Assembly (NCBI GenBank): GCA_964576435.1
Contig: CAZNUP010000001.1
Span: forward strand, 611,030-675,029
Length of the DNA: 64,000 nt
From: an uncultured Gammaproteobacteria bacterium
GTDB taxonomy: Bacteria > Patescibacteriota > Microgenomatia > JAMCZE01
Direction: 5' to 3'
Positions 54,086-57,680 of the stretch are shown one piece after another. Under the pieces are notes generated by a model. The model ran no database searches, was not told where the DNA came from, and saw only the letters and a program-made list of their open reading frames with translations. The translations under genes were made by a program, and so were the position numbers. How positions within the stretch are numbered: the stretch's first letter is position 1; every line of letters starts with the position of its first letter.

Positions 54086-54279
54086 TCAAAGGTGTCTTCC
54101 CAACTACCATCATGGAGATGCTCTAGGCACGATTATCCTTATATATACATGTTAATACATGATCTATATGAACTATAAGTATAAATAAACTTACGGGGGC
54201 AAGATGGAGAGGTAAGAGGTATGAGGTTATCTAAAAGTGTTCGATTGTTGATTTCCTACTTGCCGAGGTGGTAGTAGTT

Positions 54280-54321
54280 GTAGTATTACTACTTGACATA
54301 CTAGTTGTTGTGTGATATTGT
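54280..54321 (+). promoter_or_regulatory. palindrome GTAGTATTACTAC abutting TTGACA-17-TATTGT promoter; ATG of the first ORF lies ~7 nt after the -10 (leaderless-like)
   Basis: 13-bp perfect palindrome 54280-54292; -35 54293-98; -10 54316-21; ATG 54328. Confidence 0.35.
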
Positions 54322-54327
54322 TTTATT

Positions 54328-54642
54328 ATGGCAAGCACAAAAGATACATTAAGACAAAAATCTAATGAAGTCCTCGAAGGAATTTTGGTATTCCTCTCAA
54401 AGAAAGACAAAGAAATTTCGTTTGAAGATTTGGAAGATAAGTTCCCCAACATTAAAGGTAAACAGCTCGGCAGTTTATTCTCTGGCATTACCAGAACACT
54501 TATTAATGGTAAGAGATTAACCATCTCCATTCCCCAGTTCGGTAGCCGTAGAAAGGTATGGAAATTGAGTAAAGAATTAACTGACAAAGAACTAGAAGAG
54601 GTCGAGGTTACAGTTAAGGAAATACTGGAGGAACGAAAATGA
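54328..54642 (+). CDS. hypothetical protein (first gene of element module)
   Basis: 104-aa ORF directly after the promoter; overlaps next ORF by 4 nt. Confidence 0.4.
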   Translation: MASTKDTLRQKSNEVLEGILVFLSKKDKEISFEDLEDKFPNIKGKQLGSLFSGITRTLINGKRLTISIPQFGSRRKVWKLSKELTDKELEEVEVTVKEILEERK

Positions 54643-54833
54643 AAATTCTAACTCAAATGGATTTTTTGATTACAGCCTTTATGCATTTTCTAAAAGCAAA
54701 TTTAGGCATGGCAAACGATTTAGCTGGTAAAGGTAAATTCGTTCTTGAAATTACAGACTCACAAATTAAAGGAAGATATATCAGTGAAGGTAAAACTGAA
54801 AAATTAAAAACAATAAGTTATCAGTCAAAATAA
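54639..54833 (+). CDS. small hypothetical protein
   Basis: 64 aa, ATGA overlap with the upstream ORF. Confidence 0.3.
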   Translation: MKILTQMDFLITAFMHFLKANLGMANDLAGKGKFVLEITDSQIKGRYISEGKTEKLKTISYQSK

Positions 54834-54901
54834 ATAGCCGTTAAGATTCGCAGAGGAACTGGGCTGAAAAAGTAGTTTCTCGCCAGACATGAAGGGAACA
54901 A

Positions 54902-54929
54902 GGCATGCAAGTTAAAGCATGCCTTTTTT
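54902..54929 (+). terminator. rho-independent terminator (GGCATGC-aagttaaa-GCATGCC + T6)
   Basis: 7-bp perfect stem followed by TTTTTT. Confidence 0.6.
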
Positions 54930-55089
54930 AATACCTTTATGTTAAGCAAGGAACTAATAAACGAATTAAAAATAATACTAAAAGAGGAATATAACCTCGA
55001 ACTTACTTATGGTGAGCTTGTTAACCTTGCAACTAGACTTGTCGGATTCTTTGATTTGCTTGCAAAACTTAATTTTAAGGAGGAGCAGC

Positions 55090-55845
55090 ATGGCTAAGGC
55101 AAGGATGCTACATAAAAAAATATCCGTTTCCCTTGACGTAGATAATTTATCTTCAGAGGCACAGCTACTCTTTACCTGGATGATTGCTCATGCTGATGAT
55201 GACGGTCGGATGAAAGGAGAACCGCAATTTGTAAAGGCAAATGTGGTCCCGATGAAGAAATGGTCATTTCAAAAAGTAAAAAACTACCTTATAGAAATGA
55301 AAACTCAAGGACTCATACAATATTGGGAACAAAATAGTGAGTGGTTTATTGAATTTCCAAAGTGGAACGACTATCAACAAATAAGAAAAGATAGATATGA
55401 GAAATCAAAATTACCCTCATTTAATAAGGAAAAGGGCAACCAAGTGTCAACCAAACAACAACCAGATGACACCCAAGTGGCAGCACAATCAAATGTAGTT
55501 GAGTCCAGTCCAGAGGAAATTAAGATAAGCGAGTCCAGCGATAAGGACGAAATCGCTGAGAAAAACTTTCCTTATAAGGAGGGACAACCCAAGGTTGGGT
55601 TTGTTGACCCAACCACTGGTGGAAATTCCAAGCGGGGTTTTGTTGCCCTTGAAATTTTCAAGAGGATGGAGCCAGGTAACTTAAAGGCTATGGGTAACTA
55701 TGTCAATTGGGTCAAAGTAATTCCGGTCGATTTAATGTTCCAGTGGGCTTCTGAAATTGAACAAGATGCCACAATAAAAAATAGAGGTGCGGTTTTTAAT
55801 GCAAAGGTGAAAGAATATCTAGCAAACAAGGAGGTGAAAACATGA
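55090..55845 (+). CDS. phage replisome-organizer / replication-initiation-like protein
   Basis: Start taken at ATG 55090 with SD AAGGAGGAG (track starts at 55009 without SD). N-terminal LSSEAQLLFTWMIAHADDDGRMKGEPQFV resembles phage replisome organizer N-terminal domains; acidic/low-complexity middle region. Confidence 0.45.
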   Translation: MAKARMLHKKISVSLDVDNLSSEAQLLFTWMIAHADDDGRMKGEPQFVKANVVPMKKWSFQKVKNYLIEMKTQGLIQYWEQNSEWFIEFPKWNDYQQIRKDRYEKSKLPSFNKEKGNQVSTKQQPDDTQVAAQSNVVESSPEEIKISESSDKDEIAEKNFPYKEGQPKVGFVDPTTGGNSKRGFVALEIFKRMEPGNLKAMGNYVNWVKVIPVDLMFQWASEIEQDATIKNRGAVFNAKVKEYLANKEVKT

Positions 55846-56081
55846 TTGCTTACGAGTTTGAAATTCTTAAAAACGAGCCAAAAGGTAGAGAACTTCTTCT
55901 AGTAGCAACCACAGAAGAAAGATTACAAATAGCTGCCGAAACACATATTGGGCGTAGGATGACAGGAAAGGAAATCAACATGGTAGTCGCACTATTATCA
56001 GAAGAGATTTATGAATTAGCTGATGGAAAAGATTCAATTTTTGCCAGAACAATTCGGGAGGTCGCAAACTGGAAGTTCTGA
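55842..56081 (+). CDS. small hypothetical protein
   Basis: 79 aa, ATGA overlap with Rep-like gene. Confidence 0.3.
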   Translation: MIAYEFEILKNEPKGRELLLVATTEERLQIAAETHIGRRMTGKEINMVVALLSEEIYELADGKDSIFARTIREVANWKF

Positions 56082-56118
56082 AATAGTCCAGCCCGCCTTA
56101 TTGTAAGGAGAGGACATA

Positions 56119-57621
56119 ATGGATACGATAAAGAAAATGAAATCAGTATTATTTGCCAGAGTCTCAACTCGCGAACAAGCAGAGGAAGGATACTCATTAG
56201 CTGCTCAAGAAAAACTTCTGCTTGAACATGCTTCGAAAAAAGAAATCATCATTAGCAAGAAATTCTCTATTCCTGAATCAGCAAGTGGTAAACAGGAAAG
56301 AAAACTATTCAATCAAATGATTGAGTATGTTTTTGAACACAAAGAAATAAAGATTATTCTTTGCGAAAAAGTAGATAGAATAACTCGAAACTTCAAGGAT
56401 GCAGTAAAACTTCAGGACTGGCTAAATGAGGATGAAGAACGACAGATACATTTTGTTAAACAGAACCTAATTATTCATAAGAACTCAAAATCTAATGACC
56501 AGTTTATGTGGGATATGTTTCTGGTTCTTGCTAGGCAATATAGCAATAATCTTTCAGAAGAAACTAGGAAAGGGCTTAATGAAAAAGCAGAGCAAGGATG
56601 GTTTCCAGGAAATCACAAACGAGGCTATAAAACAGTTGGTGATATAGGTCAAAAGATTTGGGTAATTAATAACGATATTTCAGATGCGAAATATATCGAG
56701 ATGGGGTTTGTCTTTTACAACACAGGCAACTACACGTTAAGAACTCTTGCGAAAGAATTATTTACACAGGGATGGTCTATAAATGGCAAACCTGTATCTA
56801 TCAGCGAACTGCATAAACTTTTAATAGACCCGTTCTATTCAGGTGAGTTTATTTGGCACAACAAACGATACAAAGGTAAACACACTCCATTAATCACCAA
56901 AGAGCTTTTTGATAGCGTTCAAGACCGTCTACAGCGCAAATTAAAGGCTGGGAAGTATGTGAAGCATGAATATCTATTTGGTGGCAGTCTTACTATGTGT
57001 GATGAGTGTGGCAGAGCTGTTACTTGGGAAACCAAGAAAGGACACAACTACGGACATTGCACTAGACGTAACACTAATTGTTCTCAGAGAAAATACATTC
57101 GGGAAGAAAAGGTAGAACAACAAGTTGCAGAATATCTGGATACATTCAAGGTAGAGAACCCAAGATTATTGGAATGGATACGAAAGGCGCTGAAAGAAAG
57201 TCATAAAGATGAGACTGATTATCATGACACCACTGTAAAGGATTTGGATGAACAATATCTCAAAATCAAAAATAGACTTGATGTTCTTTATGATGACAAA
57301 GTGGACGGTTTAATTTCCAAAGAACAATATGAAACAAAGCTACAACAATATGAAGAACAATTAAACAATATCGTTGAGGCGAAACAGAAGCATAACAAAG
57401 CGAATATCAATTATCTGAAACTTGGTATGAATCTTTTCGAACTGGCACAAAGAGGTCGTGACCTATATGAGAAGCAGGCTAACATGAATGAAAAGAAAGA
57501 GCTGCTTAACTTTGTATTTTCGAACCTTAAAATTAGAGGAGAAAAGGTTGTCCCCACGCCCCATAATGGCTTTGAGGTAGTAGCCTTACGGGCAAAAGAT
57601 GGAAATATGCTGCGGGACTAG
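56119..57621 (+). CDS. large serine recombinase (resolvase/invertase N-terminal catalytic domain + recombinase domain + Zn-ribbon + coiled coil)
   Basis: Catalytic VLFARVSTREQAEEGYSLAAQE (Ser nucleophile), recombinase-domain blocks, Cys cluster (CDECG...C...C), C-terminal coiled coil; 500 aa. Confidence 0.85.
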   Translation: MDTIKKMKSVLFARVSTREQAEEGYSLAAQEKLLLEHASKKEIIISKKFSIPESASGKQERKLFNQMIEYVFEHKEIKIILCEKVDRITRNFKDAVKLQDWLNEDEERQIHFVKQNLIIHKNSKSNDQFMWDMFLVLARQYSNNLSEETRKGLNEKAEQGWFPGNHKRGYKTVGDIGQKIWVINNDISDAKYIEMGFVFYNTGNYTLRTLAKELFTQGWSINGKPVSISELHKLLIDPFYSGEFIWHNKRYKGKHTPLITKELFDSVQDRLQRKLKAGKYVKHEYLFGGSLTMCDECGRAVTWETKKGHNYGHCTRRNTNCSQRKYIREEKVEQQVAEYLDTFKVENPRLLEWIRKALKESHKDETDYHDTTVKDLDEQYLKIKNRLDVLYDDKVDGLISKEQYETKLQQYEEQLNNIVEAKQKHNKANINYLKLGMNLFELAQRGRDLYEKQANMNEKKELLNFVFSNLKIRGEKVVPTPHNGFEVVALRAKDGNMLRD

Positions 57622-57680
57622 GATTCGAACCTAGATATGCAGAGCCAAAATCTGCAGTCCTACCATTAGACGATCCCGCA
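57610..57680 (-). tRNA. tRNA-Gln(UUG): tRNA-Gln (anticodon UUG)
   Basis: Cloverleaf by hand: acceptor TGCGGGA/TCCCGCA (U1:A72, discriminator G), D-stem GTCT/GGAC, anticodon stem GCAGA/TCTGC with loop TTTTGGC, T-arm CTAGG-TTCGAAT-CCTAG. The 3' end overlaps the recombinase stop codon. Confidence 0.8.

Follow-up and report, generated by a model that had tools for sequence, protein, structure and literature searches.

A probable integrative, plasmid-like element with a split serine integrase gene at the 3' end of tRNA-Gln(UUG) in a CPR bacterium

Gene content of the locus

The locus lies in a 64,000-nucleotide stretch of DNA (the window) from a CPR bacterium of the Microgenomates type. A large serine recombinase (LSR) gene converges here on a tRNA-Gln(UUG) gene and is preceded on its left by a core module of small genes, a replication gene and several cargo genes. 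The features described in an earlier sequence-only reading are present where it had placed them (ORF, ARAGORN, PHROG and signal scan). The following features are referred to below.

49285-49289, attL common core TGCTG, identical to 57608-57612
49287-49397, + strand, detached 3' end of the LSR gene, 36 codons (LALVDDFRTVKWSEIIPYPELVYQKSQQYLQLYAQN) and TAA, in frame with 56119-57611
49289-49313, + strand, P' half-site GGCTCTGGTTGATGATTTCCGAACC, tRNA acceptor/T-arm-like, with GAT at +11 and CGAAC at +20
49384-49650, + strand, predicted membrane protein of 88 aa in a left-end block conserved with locus L005
49666-50967, - strand, 433-aa cargo gene without family match
50981-51778, - strand, cargo gene for a MerR-family regulator with GyrI-like effector domain (domain search)
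51836-51807, - strand, consensus promoter of the MerR-family gene (signal scan)
51830-54085, + strand, cargo gene for a UvrA paralogue of 751 aa (domain match)
54111-54135, + strand, conserved cargo/core boundary ATGGAGATGCTCTAGGCACGATTAT, not an att site
54293-54321, + strand, promoter-like TTGACA-17-TATTGT with extended -10 TG (scan)
54328-54642, + strand, small conserved ORF, 104 aa
54639-54833, + strand, small conserved ORF, 64 aa
54900-54925, + strand, intrinsic-terminator-like hairpin followed by a T run (scan)
54939-55097, + strand, 52-aa protein, the most widely conserved LSR companion
55090-55845, + strand, replication initiator-like protein of 251 aa (PHROG replication-initiation families, 9e-13)
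55842-56081, + strand, 79-aa ORF
56119-57621, + strand, LSR gene in its integrated state, 500-aa ORF with Pfam and PHROG matches
57585-57609, + strand, P half-site, the last element-encoded LSR codons
57608-57612, attR common core TGCTG, identical to the attL core and limit of homology to locus L153
57609-57680, - strand, tRNA-Gln(UUG), the integration target (ARAGORN)
57612-57631, B' half-site, acceptor 3' strand and T-arm, with CGAAC at +15

The UvrA paralogue is about 190 aa short of the 943-position UvrA profile. In the core module, a GTAGTA/TACTAC inverted repeat overlaps the promoter-like site; both this promoter and the terminator, which the sequence-only reading had proposed, were recovered by the scan. 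The strong Shine-Dalgarno sequence it assigned to the Rep-like gene is AAGGAGG, and the true start of this gene is the ATG at 55090. The 52-, 64-, 79-, 88-, 104- and 433-aa proteins have no match in Pfam, NCBIfam, PADLOC or PHROGs; the 52-aa protein is a candidate recombination directionality factor. None of the element proteins has a PHROG structural or an FtsK/Tra match. The element does not classify as a prophage, as virion structural and packaging genes were not found by the PHROG search.

The LSR has the full domain set of a serine integrase: Resolvase (the N-terminal catalytic domain with its serine nucleophile; PF00239, residues 10-160, E 2e-22), Recombinase (PF07508, 2e-10) and Zn_ribbon_recom (PF13408, 2e-6), with PHROG integrase phrog_95 as a further match (6e-63). 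Residues R14, V15, S16 and T17 and the zinc-ribbon cysteines C294, C297, C314 and C321 are invariant across 25 homologues. The AlphaFold model of the 60%-identical homologue P0062 shows a coiled-coil insertion of two helices in the zinc-ribbon domain (345-392 and 398-449, pLDDT ~85-95), and the nearest solved structure is the C-terminal domain of A118 integrase (4kis). The protein is predicted to catalyze recombination between attP and attB, a reaction that a directionality factor would reverse. It is the only recombinase within 49.3-57.6 kb, where no tyrosine integrase was found with Pfam or PHROG. A search of IMG/VR gave no LSR relative above 30% identity, and the exact protein was absent from the contig index.

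The split integrase gene and the ends of the element

As the sequence-only reading had it, the LSR stop codon lies inside the 3' end of tRNA-Gln. The ORF and the tRNA gene overlap by 13 bp, and the stop codon (TAG, 57619-57621) falls within the T-stem. All pairs of the tRNA acceptor stem are formed. At 29 of 40 GTDB loci (L073-L112), the LSR gene has a convergent tRNA gene adjoining or overlapping its 3' end; the arrangement recurs in dozens of genomic contexts that are unrelated to one another, and the tRNA is of several different kinds. Among the 120 closest protein homologues, at least 77 have C-termini encoded by antisense tRNA (e.g., NWL..DSN). On these counts the geometry is not due to chance and is shared by most CPR relatives. 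The family as compared here is large, mostly from CPR bacteria and aimed at tRNA-Gln, with related clades at tRNA-Trp, Asn, Pro, Ile, Val and His.

The overlap follows from the position of attP inside the recombinase ORF: integration alters the C-terminus of the enzyme and moves its last 36 codons to the far end. The integrated ORF consists of 496 element codons, a Leu498 codon across the crossover core, two antisense-tRNA codons (R and D) and TAG. When 56119-57611 is joined to 49289-49397, an open frame of 533 aa results, of which the tail carries the sequence LALVDDFRT. This tail runs on directly from the LSR body in P0062, P0036, P0117 and LSR-A of locus L008, the last being a hybrid integrase ORF joined to the tail of another element. 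In 14 other integrated loci the detached tail lies upstream on the same strand, and the implied elements measure 6.0-10.6 kb. A phmmer search with the 36-aa tail matched 44 short ORFs only, which are detached tails called by gene finders; long proteins are missing among the matches because the cluster representatives are integrated forms. In P0062, tail residues 505-528 are modeled with pLDDT <50. Tail codons 10-32 show pN values of 0.08-0.33 vs pS values of 0.36-1.2, from which the tail is judged to be under purifying selection; such selection across integrated copies requires periodic expression of the tail within the full-length gene.

The ends of the element were located by comparison. Homology to L153, a locus with a 93%-identical LSR, ends exactly at 57612, and the attL/attR identity blocks of 13 loci intersect at GCTG. 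On the left, blastn matches window positions 49274-49662 to positions 914-1304 of L005 (79% identity, E 2e-88) and also ties the left-end region to positions 5240-5345 of L008, a long way left of the core module. The short crossover duplication sought by the sequence-only reading is thus the 5-bp TGCTG, and its candidate left end in the 49.1-49.4 kb range holds, with the MerR/UvrA-like pair and the 433-aa gene as cargo. As the core is just 5 bp, with no long direct repeat behind it, attL relies on this comparative evidence. No long direct repeats were found in the window, and neither was a displaced copy of the tRNA 3' end, be it with ≤3 mismatches in the window or with ≤25% mismatches within 20 kb, where TGCTG alone is shared.

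The half-sites follow a recurrent pattern. At 12 loci and five attP junctions, GAT occupies +11 of P' and of B' alike, whereas NGAAC stands at +20 in P' and at +15 in B'. The same P' arm is present in the intact attP of L148, L154, L088 and L008. For LI integrase, the zinc-ribbon motif lies 5 bp farther from the center in attP than in attB (PMC3783163); the 5-bp NGAAC shift and 5-bp core seen here comply with this serine-integrase rule. The B half-site is not conserved and has little dyad symmetry with B'. The crossover dinucleotide inside the core is probably CT or TG, GC being palindromic and therefore disfavored. Gln elements have the core dinucleotide CT at attL as well as at attR; in L085, a Trp element, it is CA at the two sites, as it is in attP of L148.

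The core corresponds to tRNA positions 75-71 and is identical in both partners; positions 1-73 therefore remain host-encoded. The earlier suggestion that the recombinase gene supplies the tRNA 3' terminus has to be corrected accordingly: as read from the sequence, the mature tRNA-Gln is unchanged by insertion and the 3' trailer alone is swapped, from CAA to CAT. The reconstructed native trailer (G73-CAAAAT) looks like other tRNA trailers of the same genome.

Circular relatives show the undivided arrangement. The contig L148, which carries P0062, is 4,918 nt long and its ends overlap by 141 nt, giving a circle of ~4.8 kb, and L149, from a separate sample, is a circular permutation of it. L154, which carries P0036, closes to 8,103 bp through a 68-nt terminal overlap; this overlap is shorter than the assembler k-mer, so this circle is less certain than that of L148.

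Taken with the attL site, the split ORF and the recurring geometry, the locus is very probably an 8,323-bp integrative, plasmid-like element (49287-57611) that its own LSR has inserted at the tRNA-Gln(UUG) 3' end and that carries attP within the LSR ORF. An LSR-driven element at this tRNA end was also the central proposal of the sequence-only reading.

Alternative explanations and proposed mechanism

The boundaries may be right while this copy is an immobile relic, inherited with the chromosome because its truncated integrase cannot excise. Neither a circular junction nor an empty attB of this copy was found. All four Logan contigs with the flanking SGNH gene, from sister samples, are identical to the window and show the integrated junction, and SGNH-hydrolase homologues (~60% identity) are not syntenic and hence provided no empty site. 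The predicted attB had 0 matches in a JGI scan, and a scan for attP-type junctions yielded two further attL sites and no circles. SSV-type integrases, which are inactivated by integration, offer an analogy (PMC7253208). However, the core-module ORFs and the detached tail are all intact, the selection on the tail extends across integrated copies, the 500-aa protein retains every Pfam domain and all invariant residues, and related circles exist. We consider a relic unlikely.

It is very improbable that the element is the 3.5-kb core module only (~54.1-57.6 kb), with attL after the UvrA-like gene and with MerR/UvrA-like genes that belong to the host. The core-module homology shared by the window, L005, L008 and L146 does start sharply at 54111, with unrelated left-hand genes in each, and the sequence at 54.1 kb has ATGCT and CTAGG in common with attR; 54190-54213 imperfectly repeats the LSR 3' end. 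Yet 54.1 kb lacks a P'-type arm and an LSR tail, and the register of shared dinucleotides is inconsistent among loci unless a 6-nt gap is permitted. The P' arm and in-frame tail are found at 49287 instead, the left-end block shared with L005 is conserved beyond different cargo, and the circular relatives hold their cargo between tail and core module. An attL at ~54.12 kb, placed from the homology start of the four core modules, was dropped given the far-left conserved block and in-frame tail. The repeat at 54190-54213 versus 57585-57608 was rejected as an att pair; it lies in a conserved promoter region and is probably a chance match. The interval 54086-57680, originally given for the element, thus comprises the conserved core module only, and the other left end then considered (54.1-54.3 kb) is the cargo/core boundary, without att site.

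That a resident invertase or resolvase happens to lie beside the tRNA, with no insertion event, would fit the GC content, which equals that of the flanks (0.372), and the absence of long direct repeats, but this is already contradicted by the repeated geometry, the integrase-type domains with their PHROG match and a gene that is split here and contiguous in circular relatives. The anticipated compositional discontinuity is seen in part: the tetranucleotide distance to the remaining window peaks over the element (0.166 vs a median of 0.097), but GC does not differ.

For the integrative element, we propose the following mechanism. In the free circle, the integrase gene would be a continuous 533-codon ORF containing a 50-bp attP (predicted as 57586-57611 + 49289-49313), with P formed by ~8 codons ahead of Leu498 and P' by codons 498-506, and with the crossover in or beside the CTG codon of Leu498. 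The predicted attB (49262-49288 + 57612-57635) would be the tRNA end, with the acceptor 3' strand and T-arm as B' and the 3' trailer as B; in element-free cells, tRNA-Gln is predicted beside ...GTATTATTTTG|CTGCGGG. The zinc-ribbon domain would read the T-loop CGAAC and the recombinase domain the acceptor region. Strand exchange inside the shared TGCTG would replace the trailer and split the integrase gene. The remaining 500-aa protein would keep all catalytic and DNA-binding domains with a tail of a few antisense-tRNA codons, while the conserved 36-residue tail would be left 8.3 kb away at attL. Excision, presumably by the truncated enzyme with the 52-aa companion as directionality factor, would restore the full gene, after which the Rep-like protein may maintain the circle.

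The C-terminal swap could also, more speculatively, act as a built-in sensor of the integration state, if the 533-aa form of the circle and the 500-aa integrated form differ in activity, directionality or stability. Element topology itself would then set integrase behavior, and the system would parallel, with a serine recombinase, the suicidal integrases of archaea and integration-dependent immunity. In the mycobacteriophages BPs and Brujita, which use a tyrosine integrase, attP lies in the 3' end of the repressor gene, and the different C-termini of the integrated and free forms serve as such a sensor. In the present element it is the integrase itself and not a repressor that is split, and any regulatory consequence would be hypothetical. 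On the same speculative reading, the family would recognize the tRNA acceptor/T-arm as one half-site and accept almost any sequence at the other, which would explain tandem arrays and hybrid integrase ORFs.

Relation to known integration systems

Mobile elements of CPR bacteria are poorly known. Serine integrases are the main tools for insertion of large DNA and are thought to avoid tRNA genes. According to a 2026 provirus survey, they prefer coding sequences (PMC13626063); a 2011 survey found serine recombinases at tRNA genes to be rare (PMC3218068), and Islander described such targeting in 2014 as 'not known' (PMC4383910). The 2011 survey cites Mycobacterium AICEs in tRNA-Leu and the Ralstonia filamentous phage phiRSM1 in tRNA-Ser (PMC3218068). 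Both resemble our element in having a serine recombinase at a tRNA 3' end, AICEs also combine Int and Rep, and neither is known to have a split integrase ORF. In contrast to AICEs, which have an Int, Rep and FtsK/SpoIIIE-like Tra set, the element has Int and a Rep-like gene only, without FtsK-like transfer gene, and belongs to a separate lineage (Actinomycetota relatives <32% identical). Both a tyrosine integrase and a displaced tRNA-fragment direct repeat, features of Islander-type islands, are missing.

The closest architectural parallel is offered by the 'suicidal' tyrosine integrases of the SSV1/pT26-2 type from archaeal viruses and plasmids. Their integrase ORF contains attP, their target is a tRNA 3' end antiparallel to int, the gene is split into Int(N) and Int(C), and hybrid integrase ORFs arise from tandem insertions (PMC7253208, PMC8371274). 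The LSR element likewise has attP in the ORF, a gene that is partitioned on entering a tRNA gene, and a hybrid ORF (LSR-A of L008). However, fold and chemistry are unrelated (serine, not tyrosine), the hosts are bacteria and the common core is 5 bp instead of ~50 bp; the placement of attP inside an integrase ORF has evolved here with serine chemistry. Since only the last 36 residues are lost, the N-fragment keeps its recognized domains and, unlike in the SSV type, need not be inactive.

With phage-type integrases (Listeria A118/LI, phiC31, Bxb1, TP901-1), the LSR shares the three domains Resolvase, Recombinase and zinc ribbon along with a long coiled coil, and its att sites are likewise short, with a tiny common core and the 5-bp shift of the zinc-ribbon motif (PMC3783163). 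It differs from them in its target (a tRNA 3' end, theirs being a protein-coding gene), in having attP inside its own ORF, in its CPR hosts and in an element without virion genes. With this family, small integrative plasmids of CPR bacteria gain a first defined class, whose cargo includes drug-, metal- and stress-related genes and whose att architecture comparative data reveal directly. The family also forms a tractable test of whether the C-terminal region of serine integrases influences directionality; the LSR has ~100 residues past the region that aligns to A118.

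The integrase gene and the extent of the element

The large serine recombinase (LSR; 500 aa, 56119-57621, + strand) displays Resolvase, Recombinase and Zn_ribbon_recom domains (Pfam) and strongly matches a PHROG integrase family. It is convergent with a tRNA-Gln(UUG) gene detected by ARAGORN on the opposite strand (57609-57680); the two genes overlap by 13 bp, which places the LSR stop codon TAG inside the tRNA T-stem. Domains, PHROG match, ARAGORN call and overlap together confirm the LSR/tRNA-Gln arrangement described in the sequence-only reading, and the Rep-like gene with its Shine-Dalgarno sequence, the terminator and the promoter are found upstream, in agreement with its description.

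Genes and signals upstream of the LSR gene (promoters and terminator identified by scanning)
51836-51807, - strand: perfect promoter TTGACA-18-TATAAT, upstream of the MerR/GyrI-like gene and divergent from the UvrA paralogue
54293-54321, + strand: promoter TTGACA-17-TATTGT
54900-54925, + strand: terminator-like hairpin
ATG at 55090, + strand: Rep-like gene preceded by the Shine-Dalgarno sequence AAGGAGG, with matches to PHROG replication-initiation families

The arrangement of the MerR/GyrI-like gene, its promoter and the divergent UvrA paralogue is of the kind typical for MerR-type control over a divergent resistance gene.

The same reading had located the feature at 54086-57680, and its interpretation is partly right: the real element (49287-57611; 8,323 bp) is larger and more unusual than described. 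The tRNA 3' end has no second copy within the window. When regions further left were searched with blastn, 49274-49662 matched positions 914-1304 of the related locus L005 (79% identity, E 2e-88) and was also tied to positions 5240-5345 of locus L008. The alignment displays a conserved arm at the left end, CT followed directly by GGCTCTGGTTGATGATTTCCGAACC, and TGCTG is common to attL (49285-49289) and attR (57608-57612), the left and right ends after integration. Cargo and left-end genes comprise an 88-aa membrane protein, a 433-aa gene, the MerR/GyrI-like regulator and the UvrA paralogue. At locus L153, whose LSR is 93% identical, homology to the window stops exactly at 57612 and is followed by a diverged P'-like arm without a tRNA. 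The tetranucleotide distance is maximal over the element, and its GC content is the same as that of the surroundings. An alternative left end at 54111, where homology among four core modules sets in sharply, was rejected because no consistent crossover register could be identified there.

The predicted junction sequences are GATGGAAATATGCTGGCTCTGGTTGATGA for attP of the window element and GTATTATTTTGCTGCGGGACTAGGATT for the element-free attB; the reconstructed native trailer, G73-CAAAAT, agrees with the CAAAA-type trailers of the tRNA-Leu and tRNA-Arg genes of this genome. Neither an empty site nor a circular form of the window element was found in the contig index, the Logan contigs, the SGNH-homologue loci or the JGI attB scan. 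The SGNH hydrolase flanking the element (P0121, 57719-58357) has closest homologues that are only ~61-63% identical.

A split integrase gene and its circular relatives

The reading frame of the LSR body continues in the sequence to the right of the left-end CT, and joining 56119-57611 to 49289-49397 yields a 533-aa open reading frame (ORF) that ends in LALVDDFRTVKWSEIIPYPELVYQKSQQYLQLYAQN. This C-terminal tail is directly continuous with the LSR body in the homologues P0062, P0036, P0117 and others, whereas 14 other integrated loci have it detached and upstream in the same orientation, with implied element sizes of 6.0-10.6 kb. A library-wide phmmer search recovered 44 clusters of short tail-carrying ORFs. 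Beyond the P' arm, the tail is under purifying selection (pN 0.08-0.33 versus pS 0.36-1.2). In the AlphaFold model of P0062, the crossover falls just past the last confidently folded helix (482-491), and the tail is modeled as helices with low confidence. Hypothetically, the tail could bring about a state-dependent change in LSR activity or stability.

Two of these full-length genes are located on circles with attP intact within the LSR. P0062 is encoded on L148, a 4,918-nt contig whose 141-nt terminal overlap gives a 4,777-bp circle, and L149, from a second sample, has the same circle in permuted form. P0036 is encoded on L154 (8,171 nt), where a 68-nt terminal overlap, shorter than the k-mer of the assembler, gives a less certain circle of 8,103 bp. 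Its cargo consists of an HNH nuclease, a RelA_SpoT protein of 969 aa and an HTH_31 regulator.

In the life cycle that we propose, the free element would be a Rep-maintained circle expressing the full-length 533-aa LSR, and attP x attB recombination would insert it at tRNA-Gln. The integrated element would express the 500-aa LSR, ending in antisense-tRNA codons, until excision restores the gene, probably with participation of the 52-aa protein (54939-55097, + strand). Among the companions of the LSR it is the most conserved; it is often encoded immediately upstream and is a candidate directionality factor. The Rep function, the cargo phenotype and the present-day mobility of the window element are likewise putative. 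Gene-splitting attP sites have been described for the tyrosine integrases of archaeal SSV and pT26-2 elements (PMC7253208, PMC8371274); the open-access literature searched yielded no account of a serine integrase whose attP lies within its own ORF, nor of the present family of tRNA-targeting serine-integrase elements in the candidate phyla radiation (CPR).

Attachment sites and the target tRNA

The identity blocks of all loci intersect at GCTG (tRNA positions 74-71). Crossover probably takes place at CT or TG, given that GC is a palindrome. The core dinucleotide covaries: Gln elements have CT/CT, the Trp element L085 has CA/CA, and attP of L148 has CA. Since the crossover lies inside GCTG, tRNA positions 1-73 are unaltered and the trailer alone changes; the earlier statement that the LSR gene supplies the tRNA 3' terminus thus holds for the trailer only.

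Numbered from the CT core, GAT is present at +11 in both P' and B'. NGAAC occupies +20 in P' and +15 in B' in each of the 12 integrated loci and five attP junctions examined. This is the same 5-bp displacement as that of the zinc-ribbon-domain motif between the half-sites of attP and those of attB in LI integrase (PMC3783163). By analogy with this rule, the zinc-ribbon motif would likely correspond to the T-loop/T-stem (TTCGAACC), and that of the recombinase domain to the acceptor strand. The P arm contains a conserved stretch (GCGGGCNAAAGA) with weak dyad symmetry to P'. Across hosts, the B arms lack conservation except for the CCA-type trailer.

Of the window's five tRNA genes (57609-57680, 60135-60208, 63338-63617), four do not encode CCA, their trailers beginning with CAT, CTA or CAA, and the host must therefore depend on CCA addition. 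Beside the core, the P arm gives TGG (CCA) in most relatives and ATG in the window and L005.

Several loci display further repeats. In L085 (1540-1557) and L078 (4264-4281), the tRNA 3' end recurs as a further exact 18-nt stretch, situated 50-380 nt upstream of the real attL, which may be the scar of a former occupant of the same tRNA. L082 has an identical tRNA-Gln(UUG) pair flanking a 387-aa gene just past the LSR (11554-11625, where the two 5'-most nucleotides are missing, and 12904-12975); this arrangement may represent a further island or a duplication at that tRNA. The target is partly duplicated in L147 (2036-2190). In the window, an imperfect direct repeat (18/25) links the LSR 3' end (57585-57608) to a conserved promoter-proximal stretch upstream of the 104-aa gene (54190-54213), probably by chance.

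Family-wide tRNA targeting, tandem arrays and possible cargo exchange

Homologues of the window LSR (50-93% identity) occur in Gottesman-, Woese-, Roizman-, Levy-, Davies- and Peribacteria, from which it follows that the host is a CPR bacterium. A convergent tRNA-Gln is present at the LSR 3' end in all of L005-L010, with overlaps from 15 nt to the entire tRNA, and a convergent tRNA in 29 of 40 GTDB loci (L073-L112), mostly Gln (Trp in L085/L086, Asn in L103/L107, Pro in L112). In at least 77 of the 120 closest homologues, the LSR ORF ends in an antisense-tRNA translation ("NWL...DSN"). The LSR/tRNA overlap is a family trait, and the window element is one member of a widespread CPR family in which serine-integrase elements target tRNA genes and split their integrase gene on integration. 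More distant relatives in other phyla adjoin tRNA-Ile, Val and His. LSRs with 27-45% identity (L103, L107, L112, L114-L117, L124, L139), from Coriobacteriia, other Actinomycetota, Planctomycetota, Fimbriimonadaceae and Patescibacteria-type MAGs, also abut convergent tRNAs (Asn, Pro, Ile, Val, His), and tRNA targeting therefore reaches well past the Gln clade.

Islander 2014 states that tRNA genes are not a known target of serine integrases (PMC4383910). Ghinet et al. 2011 describe such targeting as rare, citing phiRSM1 (tRNA-Ser) and mycobacterial AICEs (tRNA-Leu) (PMC3218068), and a 2026 provirus survey reports that serine integrases prefer coding sequences (PMC13626063). By text search, the word "tRNA" does not occur in a large LSR mining paper (PMC10083194).

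L008 encodes a 608-aa LSR (3531-5357), 24.5% identical to that of the window, which continues in frame into a window-type tail (5244-5345, 82% identical) across a P-core-P' junction. The sequence of this hybrid ORF suggests tandem accretion, in which an incoming element entered an occupied tRNA site (attR); integration there fits with the unconserved B arms. Similar multiples are present at L088, L095, L124 and L139.

A conserved boundary, ATGGAGATGCTCTAGGCACGATTAT, occurs in the window (54111-54135), L005 (~8385), L008 (~8330) and L146 (~2190). To its right, the core module is conserved; to its left lies unrelated cargo at each locus, namely the UvrA paralogue, a copper-resistance cluster, HTH_31 with hydrolases, and an S51 peptidase with DUF5680. 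On this comparison, the boundary looks like a hot spot of cargo exchange.
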